A stretch of DNA of 64,000 nucleotides from an uncultured Mycoplasmatota bacterium (GTDB lineage: Bacteria > Bacillota_I > Bacilli_A > RF39 > UBA660): NCBI GenBank assembly GCA_948467605.1, contig CAOKET010000002.1:14410-78409 (forward strand), given 5' to 3'. Both the position numbers and the translations under genes were made by a program. The notes under the pieces are model-generated. The model saw only the letters and a program-made list of their open reading frames with translations. It did not search any database and was not told the DNA's origin. Below are positions 31,732 through 59,050 of the stretch, in pieces (position 1 is the first letter of the stretch; each line of letters starts with the position of its first letter).

Positions 31732-32577
31732 ATGAAAAAGATTATTATTACAATAGTTATTACAATTATATTAATAACTAGTATATTATTATGGAGCAGA
31801 TATATAAGTACTAGTGGTTTAATTGTAAAAGAATATAAAATAGAAAGTAATAAATTACCTCAAAGTTTTCATGGGTTAAAGTTAGTTCATTTTTCTGACT
31901 TACATTATGGTAGAACAGTTCATGAGAAAGAATTAAAGGATATTGTAAATAAGATTAACTATTTAAAACCTGATATTGTAGTTTTTACTGGTGATTTAAT
32001 TGATAATGACACGGTTACTACTCCTGAGGTTAGTAATATATTAAAAAAATACTTAAGTATGATTGATGTTAAAATAGATAAATACGCTGTTGTTGGAAAT
32101 CATGACTATAAGAATAATTACTATACTAGTATTATAGAAGAAAGTGGTTTTATATTACTTAATAATAATTATGATATTGTATATAACGGAAATTATAAGC
32201 CTATATTTATTGGTGGTATTGGAAATTATACTTATGGTAAAAGTGATATTTCTTCTACTATGAGTTATTTCAATAATGAGAATAATGATTTATATAAAAT
32301 AATTCTAGTACATGAACCTGATATATTAGATGAATTAACTAATTATAATATAGATTTAGTACTTGCAGGACATTCTCATAATGGACAAGTAAGATTACCT
32401 TTTATTGGTGTGGTAGTTAAACCAGTTTTTGCTGAAAAATATTATGATGAATATTATAAAGTTAAAAATACTAATTTATACATATCAAGTGGTATTGGTA
32501 CTTCTACTATAAACTTTAGATTTCTTAATAAACCATCTATTAATTTTTATAGATTTGTAAAAACAAAAGTGGAATAA
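31732..32577 (+). CDS. Calcineurin-like metallophosphoesterase (YkuE-like), membrane-anchored
   Basis: GDLID, GNHD, GHSHNGQ metal-binding motifs. N-terminal TM. RBS AGGAGG. Confidence 0.8.
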   Translation: MKKIIITIVITIILITSILLWSRYISTSGLIVKEYKIESNKLPQSFHGLKLVHFSDLHYGRTVHEKELKDIVNKINYLKPDIVVFTGDLIDNDTVTTPEVSNILKKYLSMIDVKIDKYAVVGNHDYKNNYYTSIIEESGFILLNNNYDIVYNGNYKPIFIGGIGNYTYGKSDISSTMSYFNNENNDLYKIILVHEPDILDELTNYNIDLVLAGHSHNGQVRLPFIGVVVKPVFAEKYYDEYYKVKNTNLYISSGIGTSTINFRFLNKPSINFYRFVKTKVE

Positions 32578-44155: not shown

Positions 44156-44737
44156 TTATAAATTTTTATATATTTCTGGAAATAAATCATATACACTATA
44201 ACCTAACAAATTATCAAAATATTCTTTTAATTTATATGTTTCTTTTATATGATATTGCGTATTTTCGTATGCACCTCTTCTAATCATTATGTCTATTAGC
44301 CTTTTATCTATTGTGTTTACTACATTTGTACACATTAAATCACATAGATTTATTATTTTTTCATATATTGTATATTCGTGGTTTTTAATAAATTCTCTTC
44401 TAAATGGGATATCACTTGGTATTCCTCCTGCGGTACAATTTACATCATTATTCAAGTATGAATGTGTTAAACATATATTATAGTATTTTTCATCATAGCC
44501 AAGATTTTTTAAATAATTATATCCATTCATAACATGTGATTGAAATTCACCAACTAGTTTTCCTATATCATGGATATATCCAAGAGTTCTTGCATATTCT
44601 ACATCAAGATTTAACTTTTCAGCAATTTTAGCAGCACTGTTCCCAACGCAAATTGAGTGATCAATCCAACCATCACTTGCAGTTTTTCCTCTAGCATTAT
44701 CTAACATTTTTAATGCTTCTTCACTTGTCAATTTCAT
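44156..44737 (-). CDS. HD-domain phosphohydrolase (YqeK-like)
   Basis: HSICVGNSAAKIAEKL...GYIHDIGK gives the H...HD metal-binding pattern. At about 190 aa it resembles the YqeK Ap4A-hydrolase class. Confidence 0.55.
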   Translation of the reverse strand: MKLTSEEALKMLDNARGKTASDGWIDHSICVGNSAAKIAEKLNLDVEYARTLGYIHDIGKLVGEFQSHVMNGYNYLKNLGYDEKYYNICLTHSYLNNDVNCTAGGIPSDIPFRREFIKNHEYTIYEKIINLCDLMCTNVVNTIDKRLIDIMIRRGAYENTQYHIKETYKLKEYFDNLLGYSVYDLFPEIYKNL

Positions 44738-44794
44738 TTTGTACCTCCTAGTAAATTATTTTGAAATAATATATCACTTAAATATTGTCCCCTC

Positions 44795-45334
44795 TTAATC
44801 ATTTAATTCATATTCTTTTATTCCACAGTTAGTTGTTCCAAAATTATGTAACATTCCATCTTTAGGAATTTCATTAAAATAAAAATATACACCTCTTGAG
44901 ACTCCACCATGTGTTACTAGTAATATGTTTTTACCTTTATATTTTTCTTTAATCTCATCTATAAAGTTCCTTACTCTTTTGAATAAATCTGGGATAGATT
45001 CTAAACCATCAACTGATGCGGTTGAATAATAATTCCAGTAATCTGTATAGTAAAATTCACCTAAATCTTCATTAGTTAGTTTTCCACAATTTCTTTCCTC
45101 TAATCTTTCATCATAAATTACAGGTATATTATTTTTATTTATAATTTCGCAAGTATGCCTAGTTCTTAATAATGGAGAACATATTATTAAATCAATATCT
45201 AATGATTTAACTTGTTCACTTACTTTTTTTGCTTGTTCTATACCAACTTCATTTATATCTTCGTCTAATGTACCATTATATTTATTTTCTTTATTACAAT
45301 TTGTCTGTCCATGTCTTACTACATATAATTTCAT
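44795..45334 (-). CDS. Histidine phosphatase superfamily (phosphoglycerate-mutase-like) protein
   Basis: VVRHGQTNCN (RHG catalytic motif), plus the second His in VTHGGV. Confidence 0.8.
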   Translation of the reverse strand: MKLYVVRHGQTNCNKENKYNGTLDEDINEVGIEQAKKVSEQVKSLDIDLIICSPLLRTRHTCEIINKNNIPVIYDERLEERNCGKLTNEDLGEFYYTDYWNYYSTASVDGLESIPDLFKRVRNFIDEIKEKYKGKNILLVTHGGVSRGVYFYFNEIPKDGMLHNFGTTNCGIKEYELND

Positions 45335-45353
45335 AGAATCACCCTTTCATATA

Positions 45354-46577
45354 TTATTTTAAGTTCCAATTTTTAAGGTTATACTTTTGACTTTTTTTCA
45401 ATATTTCTATTTGTTTTTTTATTTCTAATATATCATCTTCATTAAATGGTTCAAACTTGTCATAAAATCCTGTAGATTTATTTGGAAAAACTAATGCTTC
45501 TCCAAAGGTTTGTGTTACTGAATTTTTAACTCTTCCGTATAGATGGAGATGAAAAATAGGTTTTTTATTTTTTTGATATGCCCAATTACCATTTTCTTGA
45601 TAGTTTATTTTTTCAATATTTATGCCTCTAATTTTCATTGCTTCTTTCATAGATTCTCCTACTAGCATTGTTAATCTCATTAACTCTATTGCTAATTTTG
45701 GTGTAAAATCACATCTACTTTCAAATAAAGGCGCTTTTGCTCTTATCCAAAGATGACCACCATCTGTTCTTGGGATATGTGGTATTTTAGGCACTGCTAC
45801 TACAAAGTTTTCTGTCTCATAAATTATATTGTCATGAAACCTACTTATATTATTATCTGTGCTTCCATTTTTCAATAATTGATTAAGTTTATCTGGAAAG
45901 TTTACTGTCATACCATCGATGTCCAAATTGTATACCTTTTCCATTATCTCTTCATTATCTATTCCCCATAACCTGATACTTAATCCATTCCTTCTCACTA
46001 ATTCTATATCGCTTTTTGAAATATTATTTGAATTAGGACAAATCTGATTTCCATTTATACTTAATAATTCACTTATTTTATCATTATCTATCTTATCAAC
46101 TAACCATGATATTTTCACATTATTATCTATTTGCCTTATATTTCTTAATACTTCATACTTAAATGATGATATATAAATATTATCATGTTTTTTATATTTA
46201 TTAATTATGTCTAATACTTCTTTTTCTATTCCTAATACTTTTAGTTCTATTGCAAATGTTAGATTTTTGTTTAAAAATTCTTTAGCAAAGTCCTCAAATA
46301 AAACTATATGCTCACCTTCATATTTTTTGTCAAACCAACTTCCAAAATCTAGATTTTTTAATTCCTCATATGTATAATCTTTTAGTTTACCAGTACCATT
46401 TGATTTTTTATCTATTAACTTATCATGAAAAATTACTATTTTTTTGTCTTTCGTCATTTTTAAATCTAACTCTATACCATTTGCTCCTAATTCTATCGCT
46501 TTTTTAAAAGCGGAAAGTGTATTTTCTGGTGCATATGAAGAGGCTCCTCTATGTGCATAATTAATAAAATTAGTCAT
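45354..46577 (-). CDS. Glycerophosphodiester phosphodiesterase (GDPD) domain fused to a C-terminal HIT-like domain
   Basis: N-terminus: YAHRGASSYAPENT...ELDLKMTKD...FHD (GDPD). C-terminus: FVVAVPKIPHIPRTDGGHLWIRAK and HLHLYGR (HIT histidine triad H-phi-H-phi-H-phi-phi). Confidence 0.6.
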   Translation of the reverse strand: MTNFINYAHRGASSYAPENTLSAFKKAIELGANGIELDLKMTKDKKIVIFHDKLIDKKSNGTGKLKDYTYEELKNLDFGSWFDKKYEGEHIVLFEDFAKEFLNKNLTFAIELKVLGIEKEVLDIINKYKKHDNIYISSFKYEVLRNIRQIDNNVKISWLVDKIDNDKISELLSINGNQICPNSNNISKSDIELVRRNGLSIRLWGIDNEEIMEKVYNLDIDGMTVNFPDKLNQLLKNGSTDNNISRFHDNIIYETENFVVAVPKIPHIPRTDGGHLWIRAKAPLFESRCDFTPKLAIELMRLTMLVGESMKEAMKIRGINIEKINYQENGNWAYQKNKKPIFHLHLYGRVKNSVTQTFGEALVFPNKSTGFYDKFEPFNEDDILEIKKQIEILKKSQKYNLKNWNLK

Positions 46578-46779
46578 TACTTTCTCCTAACTTTTCAATA
46601 TTTGATTTGTAAAACTCTTGCTCTTCTTTATCTGTCCAATCAAACATACCATCTCTTACCCATTTTGTTTTATCTATGATTCCAGTATTTCTTAAAGTCT
46701 TATCATGTTTCAAGTATTCTTTTACTAAAAATTCTTCAAAATTTGATATTACATTATCTATGTCTACACCTATTCTCAT
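46570..46779 (-). pseudogene. N-terminal fragment of a 5'(3')-deoxyribonucleotidase (NT5C/HAD) family protein
   Basis: MRIGVDIDNVISNFEEF resembles the NT5C start MKIAIDMDEVLADF. Only 69 aa, overlapping the next gene. An intact paralog-like gene lies at 54653-55219. Confidence 0.35.
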
Positions 46780-46835
46780 TTATTACCACCTTATTTTAAG
46801 TATATCATAAACTAAAAAAAAGACCTAAGTCTTTA

Positions 46836-49183
46836 CTAATTATTTTGTAAAGCACGGTCTAATTTTGTTTTAAATTCATACCTTTTATTTATATTAAATA
46901 CTGATATTTGTTTAGATGAAAACTCTAATTGTTCTGGTATACTTTTTCTATCTAATTTATAAACTTTTACTTTTTCAAAAAACTCGTTTATAATATTATA
47001 TATTTTATTACTATTATCAATTAAATCTTCTGTTGAAATATTTCTTAACATACAGAATAAGTAATAGTAATTAGAAAGAGGAATATATGCATAGTTGCTC
47101 ATTGCAACTAAATCTCTAAGAGTTTTGTTTAATTTTGTTAAGAATAACTCTATTTTTTCATAAAAGTAAAGTGTTTCATCGATAGAATCTAAATAATTTT
47201 GTCTTTCTTTTTTAATTATATCTATATCTTTATACATGTATTTATCTTTTATTTCATTAAATTCTTTTAACCATTTACTTATTCTTTTACTGTCATAGTT
47301 TGAATAGTTTATACTTTCTAGATCTTTTGTATAAAATAAATATGATAATTTTAAAGTCGTTACTGCTGCAGTGTTATTTTTATTTTTCTTTGGTAAAATA
47401 ATTCCCATATACTTACTTATTTTTTCTTCTAAATATTTTATAATTTTAGCATCCATAGTAAGACTCCACATTCTATATGTATCTTCTTTTATAATAGACT
47501 TGTTTCTATTTATTCTTACATATTGATCTACTGCACTAAAACTACTATTTTCACTTTGACTAGTTGTTGATATTTTTAATTTAGTATTCATTATTTTATT
47601 AATGTAATCTTTAGAAATCTCATTTTCTTTTTTATTTGATTCATATTTTAGTCCATTAAGTTCAGTTAATATTCTTAATCCTTTTAAGGTATATCCATTT
47701 TTATTTGAATATTCTTCCTCACCTAATTCGTTCATAAATGGTTGTTGTAAAAATCCAAGCAAGCTTAAAATTCGCTGTTGGCCATCTACAATCTCGGTTA
47801 TCATGTTACCATTTTCAAACCTATCACACATTAATATATATGGTATTTTTATTCCCAGTAATATACTTTCTATTATTCTAGATGCTAGAACAGTATTCAT
47901 TACCTCTAATCTTTGATAATATGGTCTTACATTGTGACTACCTGTTTTTACTTCTACTAATAAATCAGATATTTTCATTTCCTTTGTAGTAAAACTAAAG
48001 TGTTTTCTGTGGAGTTCTTCTATACTGTTTATAATATCTATATTATTATTTATACTAACATCTTGTCTAAAATAATTACTCATATCTATGCCATACTCTT
48101 TTTCATAGTATTTTGCTACTACATAATATTTATTATATATATCCTTTTTATAGTGTGCTCTATTTGGATTAAAGTTCTTTTGCGTTTCTTCAATCTCACC
48201 AAAATATTCTAAGTATTTCATAAAATCAAACTTAAATGGATCACTAAGTTTATCTTTCCTTATAATAGATATCAACCAATATGTTGCATCTAAGAATGGT
48301 TTTGAATGAAGAATTTCATAATTATTCCATTTTTGGGTATTTACTAAATTAGTATATATTTGATTAACATTTATTATAAAATCTTGATAAATAGTATCCT
48401 TATTAACATTAATTATATTTGGAAGATAATTTTGTTCTATTCTAGTTTCAATATTATATGTCGAACAGAAATTATACATATTTGAGTAAGTAGATGCGAT
48501 TAACAATCTACAGTTTAATAAAATATTATCAATCTTATTACGTTTTTTCTTTCCATTAAAAAATCTTAATGCCTCTAATTCTTTCATAAATTCTTCATCA
48601 TTTTCAATTTTCTGTTTTATTTTACTAGTAATTTTATCCGATGCGAATTGTGCTTTTTGCATTTCTTCTATTAATAGTCTAAGTCCTGTATTATATATTA
48701 CATATAAATATTTTTCTACTTCTATTTCTTCGTCTTCATTTAAAATACTTTTACCCATTTTTACGTTATTATAACTATAGTCTAATACCTTAATAGGATC
48801 ACATTTAGAAAAGTATTGTTTTTCTATATCTGATAAAGTACTATATTTTTTACCAGATAGGAATTTAAGTTGCTTCAAACCTCTTTCATCTAATATAAGT
48901 TCATCATTATAAAAACTTTTCATTGCTAAAAATCTGTTATAGCCATCTACTATTATAGTATGATCGTTGTTTTTAAATCTTATTATTGGTTGCATAGAAC
49001 AATGTAAAAATATACTTTCTATATAACTAGTCTGTACTATTCTATTCCATTTTTTATCATTCTCAAATGGTCTTTCTATTAAATTTATTGTTTCATTTCC
49101 ACAGATTGAACACGGTGTTACATCGTGTTCATCACATATTAGATTATTTGCGATTAACGCTCTTAAATCAATTTCATCATTCA
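46836..49183 (-). CDS. Large protein with tandem DUF262 (ParB/Srx-like NTPase) domains and no recognisable nuclease domain
   Basis: Second domain canonical: RPYYQRLEVMNT...ITEIVDGQQRILSL (DGQQR). First domain degenerate: W...IESIFLHCSMQPIIRF...IIVDGYNRFLAM. N-terminal CxxC...CxxC. No HNH/DUF1524 motif seen. The start is MNDEID, with RBS GGGGGA. Confidence 0.65.
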
Positions 49184-49244
49184 TTAAAATCCCCCATTTC
49201 TTTAAAATGATTTTATATGTTATCATATTTGCTGGAGGTGATAA

Positions 49245-49258
49245 ACCGCATATATGCG
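49245..49258. promoter_or_regulatory. Perfect palindrome CCGCATATATGCGG in the divergent XRE / DUF262 promoter region
   Basis: Read directly from the sequence. It lies between RBS-like GGAGGTG and the XRE start codon, which makes it a candidate operator for the adjacent HTH regulator. Confidence 0.4.
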
Positions 49259-49264
49259 GTATTT

Positions 49265-49495
49265 ATGAATAAAGAGGAAGCATTTACTAAAGTTTTAAGG
49301 GTTTTAAGAAAAAAGAAAGGAATGACTCAGGAAAAACTTGCAGAAAAGTCATCAATTAATGAGAAATATTTTGGTCAAATTGAGCGAGGAAAAAGTATAC
49401 CTTCTTTAACAAAATTTTTCAATATATGTGATGCATTAAAATTAAAACCATCTGAAGTTATGAATCTTATCGAAGAATTGATAGTTAAGTATTAA
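49265..49495 (+). CDS. XRE-family (Cro/C1-type HTH) transcriptional regulator
   Basis: MTQEKLAEKSSINEKYFGQIERGKSIPSLTKFFNICDAL is a classic HTH_3. The start codon is uncertain (49217 or 49265). Confidence 0.7.
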   Translation: MNKEEAFTKVLRVLRKKKGMTQEKLAEKSSINEKYFGQIERGKSIPSLTKFFNICDALKLKPSEVMNLIEELIVKY

Positions 49496-50969: not shown

Positions 50970-51707
50970 TTATTCTCTAAATAATTCATTTTGCATTTTA
51001 TCTGGATTTTCTAAGAACATTTTATATACTTGATATATTTCTGTATCTTTATAGTTTATTTCATTAAAATTATTATTTAAATCGTATATTATACTATTCC
51101 TGTATGCGATTAAAATTGGAGAATGTGTTGCAATTATGAACTGGCTTCCATTTTTAACTAAATTATCTATTAAACTAAGCAAAGTCATTTGTCTTATTGG
51201 TGATAATGCTGCTTCTGGTTCATCTAAGATATAAAGTCCGTTATCAGAAAATCTATTTTGAACTACTTTTATAAATGCTTCTCCATGTGAACACTTATGT
51301 AAATCCCCTCCATAATATCTATATATTGGTAATGATTCTTCACTAATTTTTTCTATTTCAGTTGCCACATTGTAAAAACTTTCTGCTCGTAAAAAATACT
51401 TAGTTTGTGGTACTCCTAGTTTACTTACTTTTAGATATTTATATAAATCGGAATGAGTATTATTTGTTTTAAAATTAAAGTTTTGTGTTCCCCCTTCTGG
51501 ATTTAATCCACAAGAAATTGCTAGTGCTTCTATAAATGTTGACTTACCTATACCATTTTCACCTATTAAGAATGTAACTGGTGAAGTTAATCTTAACTCA
51601 TCAAAATTTTTAATTATTTCTATATTAAATGGATATATATCAAAATCTTCTATCTTTTCTTTATCAAGTCTTATATTATTTACAAATAAACTATTATCAC
51701 GTTTCAT
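50970..51707 (-). CDS. Small stand-alone ABC-type (AAA_21-like) ATPase
   Basis: Walker A GENGIGKST, Walker B LYILDEPEAALSP, H-loop IIATHSP. 245 aa, no transmembrane partner. Confidence 0.6.
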   Translation of the reverse strand: MKRDNSLFVNNIRLDKEKIEDFDIYPFNIEIIKNFDELRLTSPVTFLIGENGIGKSTFIEALAISCGLNPEGGTQNFNFKTNNTHSDLYKYLKVSKLGVPQTKYFLRAESFYNVATEIEKISEESLPIYRYYGGDLHKCSHGEAFIKVVQNRFSDNGLYILDEPEAALSPIRQMTLLSLIDNLVKNGSQFIIATHSPILIAYRNSIIYDLNNNFNEINYKDTEIYQVYKMFLENPDKMQNELFRE

Positions 51708-57336: not shown

Positions 57337-58524
57337 ATGAAAAAGGTAAGACAAGAGAATAAAATTTTAATAATGTTATCATTTTTTAGTATCTCAATTG
57401 GATTGTGGGAAAACTTTAGACAACTTTGGTTGCAAAATAATAACTTTTCTGCAACTGATATTAGTAATATATTTAGTATAGGAACTTTAGTTAGTGTAAT
57501 AGGTATAGTTTTTGTTAGTAAGTTTGTTAAGTTAAATAAACTTAAAACATTTATAGGCATTTCTTTAGTTATAAAACTTATAAATTTATTAGGATTATTT
57601 AATTTAAACAATACTGGTAATAGCAATTTAATAAATATTTTAGTAATAATAGATATACTTACTAGTTATTTAGTTACAACTAGTATATATCCTTTAATAA
57701 CAACAATTATTAAAAATAATAAAATATATAGCAAAAGAAAATTAACAGAGTATCTTTTTAAAGACATAGGAATTTTAATTGGTGGTTTATTAATTGGTAA
57801 AAATATTATAGGCATTTTAGTGGATTATAATATTTGTCTATTTATTTCCGCTATATTTTTAATGTTTGCAGTTGCATTTATATTTAATATAACAACTTGT
57901 GTTTTAGAAGAGAAAAAAGTTGAGGAAAAAGTGTCTATAGTTAAATATGTATTTAAAAGTAAATTACAAAAACTATATATGGGATATACTTTTATCGGCA
58001 GTATGGCTATGAAAACAGCGCTTGGTTTAAAAATGCTTACTCTTACAAATTATTTTAAATTTACTGATAGTACTGCAACTCATTATTTACTTATAGTTGG
58101 TTTATTTGCGGATATTATTGGTATACTTGCATTAAAATATTTTACTCCAAAGAATGATTATGTAACTATTACTATTAAATTTGGTATAAGATTTACCTTA
58201 TATTTAATTGCATTTCTATCAAATAATATGATTATAACAATAACTGCTATTACGTGGTCTTTATTAATTTCAACATCTTATGAAAATATTTGTGATGGTT
58301 ATTATATAAATTCTGTTCCTACTAATTATCAATTATCATTTACTAATTTTAGATACGTTGTTAAATATTTAGGAGAGGCATTAGGAGTATTTCTTTGTGG
58401 AATAATGTATGAAATGGGTATTAGGTATATGCTTGGATTATCAGCATTTTTTATGATATTTCAAATATTTATATCATACTACTTAATATATATAAGAAAT
58501 AAGGAGAAAATTAAAAATGAGTAG
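57337..58524 (+). CDS. MFS-like polytopic membrane transporter
   Basis: 395 aa, about 12 TM helices. No diagnostic motif. Confidence 0.5.
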   Translation: MKKVRQENKILIMLSFFSISIGLWENFRQLWLQNNNFSATDISNIFSIGTLVSVIGIVFVSKFVKLNKLKTFIGISLVIKLINLLGLFNLNNTGNSNLINILVIIDILTSYLVTTSIYPLITTIIKNNKIYSKRKLTEYLFKDIGILIGGLLIGKNIIGILVDYNICLFISAIFLMFAVAFIFNITTCVLEEKKVEEKVSIVKYVFKSKLQKLYMGYTFIGSMAMKTALGLKMLTLTNYFKFTDSTATHYLLIVGLFADIIGILALKYFTPKNDYVTITIKFGIRFTLYLIAFLSNNMIITITAITWSLLISTSYENICDGYYINSVPTNYQLSFTNFRYVVKYLGEALGVFLCGIMYEMGIRYMLGLSAFFMIFQIFISYYLIYIRNKEKIKNE

Positions 58525-59050
58525 AATAACATTAATAACGTATTTTGATGATAAAAATTTAAGTATAGTTAATAATTATATAAAAGATATATCTATTAAT
58601 ATGTGCAAAGTACCATATGGTATAGACGATAATAACAGATATTCAATCGATAATTTACCATATCACTTTACAATATTCGCAACTGATAAAGAAAACCAAG
58701 ATAAGCTTTTAAATATTTGTAAAAGTATAAATATCAGTAAAATAAAACTAAAAATTAATGATGTAAAAATAATGAATGCAAAAAATAATAGTTTTGTTTT
58801 ATATTTTTCAATTGAGGAAAATAGTGATTTAAAGTACTTGCAAAGATGTTTTTATGAAAAAATATCTGGTGGGAAATATAATCCAGATACTTTTACATTT
58901 CATATGACATTACATATTGATAAGGATGAAAAATTAATCTATGAATTATTAAAAATAATAAAACAAGATTTTAAACCGTTTTATCTTGAATTTGATAAAC
59001 TAGTATTATATAACTATCCAGGCAATATGATAAAAGTAATTGATTTATAA
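58517..59050 (+). CDS. 2H phosphoesterase superfamily protein (LigT / 2'-5' RNA ligase-like)
   Basis: Two H-x-T/S-x motifs: YHFTIFA and FHMTLHI. Its start overlaps the end of the transporter gene by 8 nt. Confidence 0.6.
   Translation: MSRITLITYFDDKNLSIVNNYIKDISINMCKVPYGIDDNNRYSIDNLPYHFTIFATDKENQDKLLNICKSINISKIKLKINDVKIMNAKNNSFVLYFSIEENSDLKYLQRCFYEKISGGKYNPDTFTFHMTLHIDKDEKLIYELLKIIKQDFKPFYLEFDKLVLYNYPGNMIKVIDL

Follow-up and report, generated by a model that had tools for sequence, protein, structure and literature searches.

Why should a gene that joins a GDPD phosphodiesterase domain to a domain of the histidine triad (HIT) fold stand among phosphatase genes, and is it a real gene at all? 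The question is raised by four consecutive genes (44156-46779, minus strand) in a 64,000-nucleotide (nt) stretch of contig CAOKET010000002.1 from an uncultured Mycoplasmatota bacterium, which is referred to as the window; unless another locus is named, coordinates are positions in it. We take the source to be a low-GC gut Firmicute and read the locus as a conserved cytosolic operon for phosphoester and nucleotide salvage in compact, partly eroded form, in which the central gene was formed by the merger of neighbouring genes and beside which an unrelated GmrSD-like gene has been inserted. The probability that we give to this reading is about 60%.

The four open reading frames (ORFs) encode products of 69, 407, 179 and 193 amino acids (aa) in low-GC DNA (~25% in the window). 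Their succession on one strand bears out the sequence-only reading, an earlier interpretation made without database searches, which had described four co-directional consecutive genes. They are, in order from the 69-codon ORF, the remnant of a gene for an NT5C-nucleoside hydrolase fusion protein (NT5C-IU_nuc_hydro, hereafter NT5C-IUNH), the GDPD-HIT-like fusion gene, a histidine phosphatase gene and a gene for an HD phosphohydrolase.

Reality and origin of the fusion gene

The first question is whether the 407-aa product (45354..46577, minus strand) is one polypeptide. It comprises a GDPD domain (residues 9-230, 45888..46553), a flexible inter-domain linker (residues 237-248, 45834..45869) and a divergent HIT-fold domain (residues 249-407 with the stop codon, 45354..45833). 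One might suspect that two genes were joined by a frameshift or an assembly error, as the corresponding position in close relatives is occupied by a pair of overlapping genes, which an error of one base could merge. However, the junction DNA is in frame and contains no stop codon, and the identical 407-aa protein was found in Logan on at least four contigs that were assembled independently and agree in gene order. The orthologue P0122 (402 aa, 88% identical) is fused as well, with a shorter and different linker, and occurs at a syntenic locus on 11 contigs. In addition, ~57 other clusters at 90% identity have GDPD fused to the same C-terminal domain, and dozens of these diverged fused forms have distinct linkers. 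An artefact is thus essentially excluded, with next to no probability left for it, and the presence of both domains in one polypeptide, as the sequence-only reading had it, can be accepted.

The fusion is also recurrent, as was found by the domain-architecture search across genomes that had been proposed as a check. When architectures were classified by BLAST against the window domains, the matches listed from a database search with the whole 407-aa protein included 17 GDPD-HIT-like proteins (a few of which are N-truncated triple fusions), 42 histidine phosphatase-GDPD-HIT-like triple fusions (579-585 aa), four histidine phosphatase-GDPD proteins and one GDPD-HD protein, P0195, the C-terminal HD part of which is homologous to the HD protein of the window.

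The relatives with separate genes indicate how such a protein can be formed. In these genomes, GDPD (240-243 aa) and the HIT-like domain (161-173 aa) are encoded by two genes that overlap by 8-17 nt and are followed by a histidine phosphatase gene; in locus L004, the stop/start overlap is ATGAGTAA. The GDPD stop and the HIT-like start fall at the position of the window linker, and, judged from these gene borders, the window fusion is a merger of two adjacent, translationally coupled genes. A rough neighbour-joining tree of the HIT-like domain, in which the fused forms occupy one broad clade interleaved with standalone forms and the triple fusions make up a subclade separate from the window pair, suggests that fusion or fission occurred repeatedly.

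In the structure model of the 407-aa protein, the predicted local distance difference test (pLDDT) value is below 50 for residues 240-248 and above 90 for both domains. Because of this low linker confidence and a whole-protein predicted template modelling score (pTM) of only 0.60, the protein is predicted to consist of two independently folded domains on a flexible tether and to form no rigid composite.

The GDPD domain

The GDPD domain was readily identified: residues 9-230 match PF03009 over profile positions 1-244 of 244 (E 2e-43, 149.6 bits against a cut-off of 23.6), and PDB entry 2pz0 is matched at E 5e-40, both by the N-terminal 236 residues of the protein. Residues H9, R10, E36, D38, H51, E111 and K113 align with H17, R18, E44, D46, H59, E119 and K121 of that entry and are the catalytic and metal residues of GDPD enzymes. 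With all of them present, the active site is predicted to be intact. No signal peptide was found in the protein, and the domain is classified from its sequence as UgpQ-like and cytosolic. With UgpQ-type cytosolic glycerophosphodiesterases it shares the PF03009 and 2pz0 matches, the catalytic residues and the lack of a signal peptide; in contrast to them, it falls below the cut-off of the UgpQ equivalog (NCBIfam NF006989; PRK09454; 128.2 bits against 264) and is fused to a HIT-fold domain (in relatives also to histidine phosphatase or HD), and no ugp transporter or glp genes lie nearby.

In loci L005, L013 and L015, the GDPD gene is broken into two fragments, one of 50 aa and the other of 151 or 204 aa, with the HIT-like, histidine phosphatase and Metallophos genes intact. 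This suggests that GDPD is decaying in that lineage and is an accessory partner, not a core one.

A divergent branch of the HIT superfamily

Another important question is whether the C-terminal domain belongs to the HIT proteins. It had been called a complete HIT domain, and a profile search against GDPD and HIT had been named as the check. The GDPD profile was passed, as described above, but the C-terminal domain alone matches Pfam PF01230 with an E of 0.042 and 14.9 bits and does not reach the gathering score of 21.5. Among 115 relatives, 38 reach PF01230 at E <= 0.01 and a few pass the gathering score, the best with 27.4 bits. No HIT entry was retrieved by sequence searches of the PDB with the C-terminal domain, the 115-sequence family profile (A1) or the member P0076. 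The structure predicted by AlphaFold2 from the family alignment (mean pLDDT 92.3) shows the alpha+beta fold of the HIT superfamily, and in a Foldseek comparison with the PDB the leading matches were all HIT proteins, the best being Fhit-/Hint-like hydrolases. By virtue of this predicted fold and of the 38 relatives matching PF01230, the C-terminal domain is assigned to the HIT superfamily as a divergent, unnamed branch.

To assess the extent of this branch, the family profile was run with HMMER against all of 1.84 billion cluster representatives, which gave 348 clusters (50% identity) at E <= 0.001, mostly from gut Firmicutes, bacteria of the Candidate Phyla Radiation (CPR) and DPANN archaea. 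The very large canonical HIT families were not retrieved at this threshold. Most members are standalone proteins. In comparison with the Fhit/Hint hydrolases (PF01230; PDB 2oik, 2eo4, 7p8p), the likeness lies in the upstream histidine and the H-phi-H-phi-phi-G-R strand; the family differs in that the first triad histidine is usually missing, in an NYQENGNW motif on an inserted helix ahead of the triad strand, in a ~55-residue C-terminal extension kept across the family, and in that most members stay below the Pfam threshold and the family profile finds no solved structure.

Is the domain an enzyme? The window protein contains the upstream motif P-H267-I-P-R-T-D-G-G-H275 (45753..45782) and the strand H343-L-H345-L-Y-G-R (45531..45551), of which the latter had been taken for the triad. 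Comparisons by hhalign and hmmsearch with FHIT and HINT1 sequences covered the N-terminal half only or gave an ambiguous triad register; in the hhalign comparison of A1, H275 aligns with FHIT His35 and HINT1 His51. The register was set by column counts over 127 divergent representatives. At position 104, the first of the triad, histidine is the commonest residue (26 of 127); at position 106, the second triad histidine, it is found in 122 (96%), and at position 108, the third, in 118 (93%), with glutamine in seven. The full pattern H-x-H-x-H-[LIV]-[YF]-G-R is kept in 25 of the 127. An earlier count, in which 3 of 88 loci had histidine, did not exceed chance expectation and was discarded. In this register the window strand reads I341-F-H343-L-H345-L-Y, so that the first histidine is lost, H343 is the second and putative nucleophile, and H345 is the third. 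The HLHLYGR of the sequence-only reading therefore holds the second and third histidines, its first position being Ile341, whereas the upstream GH motif that it had noted is present, with H275 kept.

The missing first histidine, together with the Pfam score below threshold and the distance from canonical HIT proteins (none at E <= 0.001 among the 1.84 billion representatives), could mean that the domain is catalytically dead or is a regulatory nucleotide-binding module that tunes GDPD. This would leave most members, as standalone proteins, with no partner to regulate, and it is at odds with the conservation of the site: hardly any variation is seen in the family at the second and third triad histidines, the upstream histidine and the N/Q residues of the nucleotide loop, as would be expected from purifying selection on an active site. 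The upstream histidines at family positions 30 (H267 in the window protein) and 38 (H275) occur in 103 and 112 of the 115 members, respectively. To our knowledge, every characterised HIT enzyme uses the second triad histidine as its nucleophile. Moreover, the second and third histidines are reported to carry out HINT catalysis, in which the first is not involved (PMC6354057). Given the conservation of the active site, we consider a dead or regulatory domain improbable. Both domains of the fusion protein look catalytically competent, since the second and third histidines and the GDPD residues are conserved.

Partners of the fusion gene in the window and in relatives

The 179-aa protein (44795..45334, minus strand) is a branch 1 histidine phosphatase, as had been proposed, with a PF00300 match at E 5e-41 (140.8 bits against 21.7) and an RHG motif at residues 7-9 (VVRHGQT, residues 5-11). 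It is 57% identical to the product of L004:6518-7054 and is the orthologue of the phosphatase that follows the HIT-like gene in relatives. Its nearest PDB entries are PspA, PhoE and CobC, and against the CobC equivalog TIGR03162 it scores 119.8 bits, short of the cut-off of 162.9. The idea of cobamide remodelling by a CobC-like phosphatase and a phosphodiesterase was dropped, as no cobalamin genes were found in any locus. The 193-aa protein (44156..44737, minus strand) matches PF01966 at E 9e-12 and TIGR00277 (HDIG) with 44 bits and is 68% identical to the product of L004:2892-3500. It had been described as a YqeK-like HD hydrolase; the HD superfamily part of that description holds, while the YqeK model TIGR00488 gives 16.2 bits against a cut-off of 70.15. 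With generic HD/HDIG models as the only ones passed, the protein belongs to the HDIG class.

Do these genes belong together, or are they neighbours by chance? In loci L002-L004, a cluster holds orthologues of all four window genes plus two nucleoside hydrolases, in the order NT5C-IU_nuc_hydro, HD, a 156-aa protein (weakly HAD/NT5C-like), second nucleoside hydrolase, GDPD, HIT-like, histidine phosphatase. The identities to the window products are 66% (NT5C N-terminus), 68% (HD), 64% (GDPD), ~69% (HIT-like) and 57% (histidine phosphatase). Other loci combine the genes differently: in L036, L052, L057 and L059, the HIT-like gene stands with histidine phosphatase, NT5C-IUNH and HD and without GDPD, and in L005 and L013 it is linked to a Metallophos gene. 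When same-strand genes lying no more than 3 kb away were tallied in 80 loci of species-representative genomes, histidine phosphatase was found next to the HIT-like gene in 24 (fused in five), GDPD in 19 (fused in eight), Metallophos in five, and NT5C-IUNH and HD in three each. The linked loci are nearly all from metagenome-assembled genomes of gut Firmicute type ('uncultured Clostridium sp.', 'Clostridia', 'Bacilli'), including Clostridium sp. CAG:465. Thus, all four window enzymes are linked by fusion or adjacency across relatives, and the functional coupling of GDPD and the HIT-like domain that had been suspected is backed by their repeated fusion, overlap and adjacency.

Outside these genomes, in CPR and DPANN, the HIT-like gene occurs alone in varied, unrelated housekeeping contexts; on one CPR contig it adjoins NUDIX and Ham1 genes. 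Three further proteins, P0278, P0279 and P0255, join the HIT-like domain to a C-terminal S-adenosylmethionine-dependent methyltransferase (412-419 aa) or to a preceding Ham1/ITPase fragment (237 aa). The NUDIX and Ham1 genes and the Ham1 fragment tie the family to nucleotide enzymes in these lineages too, which speaks for the salvage reading.

Two observations were made in passing. Several proteins of 350-421 aa have the HIT-like domain beside regions without a Pfam match. At 10180-10386 in L002-L004, a few genes downstream of the cluster, a 68-aa ORF matches Pfam HMUDK_hel, the helical domain of 5-hydroxymethyl-dU DNA kinase; in L002 it lies beside TnpV.

Partial erosion of the operon

The history of the 69-codon ORF (46570..46779, minus strand) was traced by comparison with a sister locus, L096/L097, which is syntenic with the window and encodes the 88%-identical fusion protein. 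The gene order there is AAA ATPase, IspF, DapA, NT5C-IUNH (475 aa), GDPD-HIT-like, histidine phosphatase, a 169-aa P-loop protein, HD, a 145-aa ORF, phosphoketolase, a 226-aa ORF and HtpG. The window ORF corresponds to the first 64 codons of the NT5C-IUNH gene of L096 and its last five, LGESND-stop: the N-terminus is 92% identical to about the first 64 residues of the 475-aa product of L096:2360-3787 (and 66% identical to the NT5C-IUNH protein of L004), and LGESND matches residues 470-475. In the DNA alignment with L096, the deletion junction lies at an AAAAGTT/AAAAATT microhomology. The view that this is a truncated, decayed NT5C gene is thereby borne out, in a form other than a simple 3' truncation, namely, an internal in-frame deletion of an NT5C-nucleoside hydrolase fusion gene.

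The enzyme domains of NT5C (PF06941, HAD) have four HAD motifs and a length of ~170-180 aa. Pfam and NCBIfam scans of the 69-aa product gave no match. It is clearly homologous to the N-terminus of NT5C-annotated proteins and keeps HAD motif I (DIDNV) as its only motif, so that the remnant peptide cannot be a phosphatase. What the deletion has spared is the apparatus of translation. A Shine-Dalgarno-like AAGGTGG, read from the sequence (46786..46792, minus strand), precedes the ATG by 6 nt, and the stop/start overlap ATGACTAA (8 nt, 46570..46577, minus strand) joins the remnant ORF to the GDPD-HIT-like gene, which suggests that the two are translationally coupled. The full-length gene of L096 has the same 8-nt overlap with the GDPD-HIT-like start. 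Because the in-frame deletion has kept the ribosome-binding site, the ATG and the overlap, translational coupling into the fusion gene would have been preserved.

The 169-aa protein of L096 (5560-6069), between histidine phosphatase and HD, has a Walker A motif (GFGAIGKTT), belongs to no Pfam family and may be a small kinase. Its gene overlaps the HD start by 17 nt, and in the window its place is taken by a 57-nt spacer (44738-44794). The 145-aa ORF downstream of HD was rejected as a component of the cluster, being kept in the sister locus only and unrelated to the small ORFs of other clusters.

The defence-like neighbour

The sequence-only reading had also pointed to a defence-like gene beside the cluster. 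The gene at 46836-49226 (minus strand) encodes a 796-aa protein with GmrSD_N/DUF262-like character in Pfam and a PADLOC match to NsnA at 1e-22. It had been called a tandem-DUF262 gene; the family is right, and Pfam detects a single GmrSD_N stretch (residues 420-574). A helix-turn-helix (HTH) gene (49217-49495) is encoded divergently on the plus strand.

Could the cluster act in defence or counter-defence, either degrading a nucleotide immune signal (a cyclic oligonucleotide or an ADP-ribose-derived compound) or working with the GmrSD/NsnA-like enzyme? The GmrSD_N/NsnA-like gene does adjoin the cluster immediately, the genomic context of the cluster varies among relatives, and near the cluster in L003, L004 and L098 there is a metallo-beta-lactamase-fold protein with a weak Apyc1 match in Pfam. 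The sister locus speaks against such a role. In L096, the cluster is present without the HTH and GmrSD-like genes, DapA directly precedes NT5C-IUNH, and homology to the window resumes at the operon ribosome-binding site or ~12 nt upstream of it, the alignment being identical from AGGTGGTAATAAATG onward. No other relative examined has an HTH or GmrSD-like neighbour. From this comparison, the GmrSD-like and HTH genes are a lineage-specific later insertion of ~2.7 kb, and their adjacency says nothing about function.

Other evidence points the same way. In PADLOC-DB at E <= 0.01, no match was found for the fusion protein, the histidine phosphatase or the remnant, and the HD protein matches generic Cas3-HD models only, and weakly. 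The HIT-like gene is a single-copy gene in a housekeeping context in CPR genomes. The two transcription units are separated by a weak, terminator-like hairpin with a U-run (-5 kcal/mol, z -1.7), found by hand after the stop codon of the GmrSD-like gene; a promoter and terminator scan, uninformative in this AT-rich DNA, detected no terminators and 35 promoter-like sites, where 31 were expected. A defence role is therefore very unlikely and in our view essentially excluded, and the proposed link to the neighbouring gene is not supported.

Two nearby genes of related interest can be described here. The metallo-beta-lactamase-fold protein (~309 aa; Lactamase_B, Anti-Pycsar Apyc1) is encoded at 363-1292 in L003 and L004 and at 9650-10579 in L098, in two unrelated contexts. 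It might add another phosphodiesterase to the salvage theme, or its presence might be coincidental. At 50970-51707 the window encodes a 245-aa AAA_15/AAA_21 ATPase with PADLOC matches to AriA (2e-17), PtuA, NsnB (4e-13) and GajA. It is probably not the partner of the NsnA-like gene, since it is kept in L096 without that gene and IspF and DapA lie between.

Possible function of the cluster

What might the enzymes do together? In the salvage reading, GDPD would hydrolyse a glycerophosphodiester to sn-glycerol-3-phosphate and an alcohol; the residues for this are present, and the substrate is proposed by analogy with the family. From its fold and conservation, the HIT-like domain would use His343 to attack the alpha-phosphate of a nucleoside-5'-monophosphate (NMP) conjugate, forming a covalent His-NMP from which NMP is released. 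Candidate substrates have NMP-O-P linkages (CDP-glycerol, other CDP-alcohols and NpnN, that is, dinucleoside polyphosphates) or NMP-N linkages (phosphoramidates). The histidine phosphatase and the HD enzyme would strip phosphate from phosphomonoester products, and in relatives the NT5C-nucleoside hydrolase fusion protein would take NMP to the nucleoside and further to base and ribose, a branch that has been deleted in the window lineage. The sequence-only reading had named two examples of a target: a nucleotide-linked head group, the processing of which may be the role of the protein, and a signalling dinucleotide, to which nothing in the analysis points.

A biosynthetic role was considered as well. 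The HIT-like domain might act as GalT or Ap4A phosphorylase does, as a nucleotidyl transferase or a phosphorylase, with the fusion channelling an intermediate: the glycerol-3-phosphate or the alcohol released by GDPD would be converted to an NDP-linked head group such as CDP-glycerol, for the synthesis of lipid or teichoic acid. Domains are classically fused when they catalyse successive steps of a pathway. GalT-branch HIT enzymes are transferases with glutamine at the third triad position, and some members of the family have such an HxQ at the second and third positions. The window protein, however, has histidine at the third position, as hydrolases do, and its best fold matches are Fhit-/Hint-like hydrolases. 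The intermediate of such a pathway would be destroyed by a phosphatase fused to the enzymes that make it, and genes for glycosyl, teichoic-acid or CDP-alcohol transferases show no consistent co-occurrence. We rate a transferase or phosphorylase role lower than hydrolysis, as unlikely, because every recurrent partner is a hydrolase (histidine phosphatase, HD, NT5C, nucleoside hydrolase, Metallophos, HAD).

A further, tentative idea, which we think doubtful if less so than a biosynthetic role, is that GDPD, the HIT-like domain, the histidine phosphatase and HD form one multi-enzyme machine for an unrecognised metabolite with both a glycerophosphodiester and a nucleotidyl linkage, the HIT-like domain being a new functional branch of the HIT proteins. 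Targets might be CDP-glycerol-type compounds, teichoic-acid or lipid head-group precursors from the gut, or a new nucleotide-glycerol compound.

Several points weigh against the salvage operon that we favour. The substrate of every step is one that we infer. Neither the HIT-like family nor these fusions have been characterised, and database labels for the HIT-like proteins offer nothing beyond an automatic 'HIT family hydrolase'. Hydrolysis is not the sole possible chemistry, because seven of the 127 representatives have the GalT-type glutamine. The basic role of the HIT-like domain needs no GDPD, as the standalone genes of CPR and DPANN genomes show. In none of the loci seen do transporter genes or catabolic genes for glycerol or glycerol-3-phosphate accompany the cluster, so that a role in feeding on glycerophosphodiesters is uncorroborated by context. 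Finally, the loss of NT5C-IUNH and the P-loop gene in the window lineage shows that the cluster is partly dispensable.

How new is the arrangement? In the literature searched, there is no paper describing GDPD together with a HIT domain, in agreement with the earlier statement that such a fusion is not known from characterised proteins. Among HIT-superfamily enzymes, the CDP-diacylglycerol pyrophosphatase Cdh (PDB 2pof) acts on a nucleotide-linked glycerolipid head group, and its chemistry is of the type that would make sense beside GDPD. The nearest precedent in kind is NitFhit, the 'Rosetta stone' fusion of nitrilase and Fhit (PMC9913352). The fusions described here differ from NitFhit of C. 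elegans and Drosophila (PDB 1ems) in that the partner is GDPD, histidine phosphatase or HD instead of nitrilase, and in that they are bacterial and also backed by conserved operon adjacency. Taken together, the locus presents a new architecture and an unannotated HIT branch, both from established enzyme superfamilies, which is no surprise in principle and overturns nothing known.

Other features of the window

Two further regions of the window attracted attention. Between 26000 and 33000, a switch of coding strand coincides with a fall in GC content to 18-24%; the region contains large ORFs with weak or no Pfam matches (256 aa, 724 aa with a weak DUF2157 match, and 587 aa), an Rce1-like CAAX protease gene and a Metallophos gene. 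The latter (31732-32577) was rejected as an orthologue of the cluster-linked Metallophos, with 29% identity over part of its length. On the plus strand at 57337-59050, another local strand switch, a 395-aa ORF without a Pfam match overlaps the start of a gene for a 177-aa 2H phosphoesterase of the 2'-5' RNA ligase/LigT-like type.

Implications

The fusion gene and its relatives offer a concrete starting point for experiments on a family of HIT fold that is unannotated; most of its members have no Pfam match, and none has a characterised relative. The family accounts for at least 447 loci in species-representative genomes, many of which belong to organisms that have reduced genomes and depend on salvage, and its recurrent ties to GDPD, histidine phosphatase, HD and nucleotidase-nucleoside hydrolase genes narrow the search for the substrate of the HIT-like domain. 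The locus also shows erosion and invasion of an operon over a short evolutionary distance, with an in-frame deletion at a microhomology and the insertion of a defence gene. If the tentative idea of a multi-enzyme machine were true, the HIT-like family would have a substrate class of its own and would matter to gut Firmicutes, CPR bacteria and DPANN archaea, which have reduced genomes and live by salvage.

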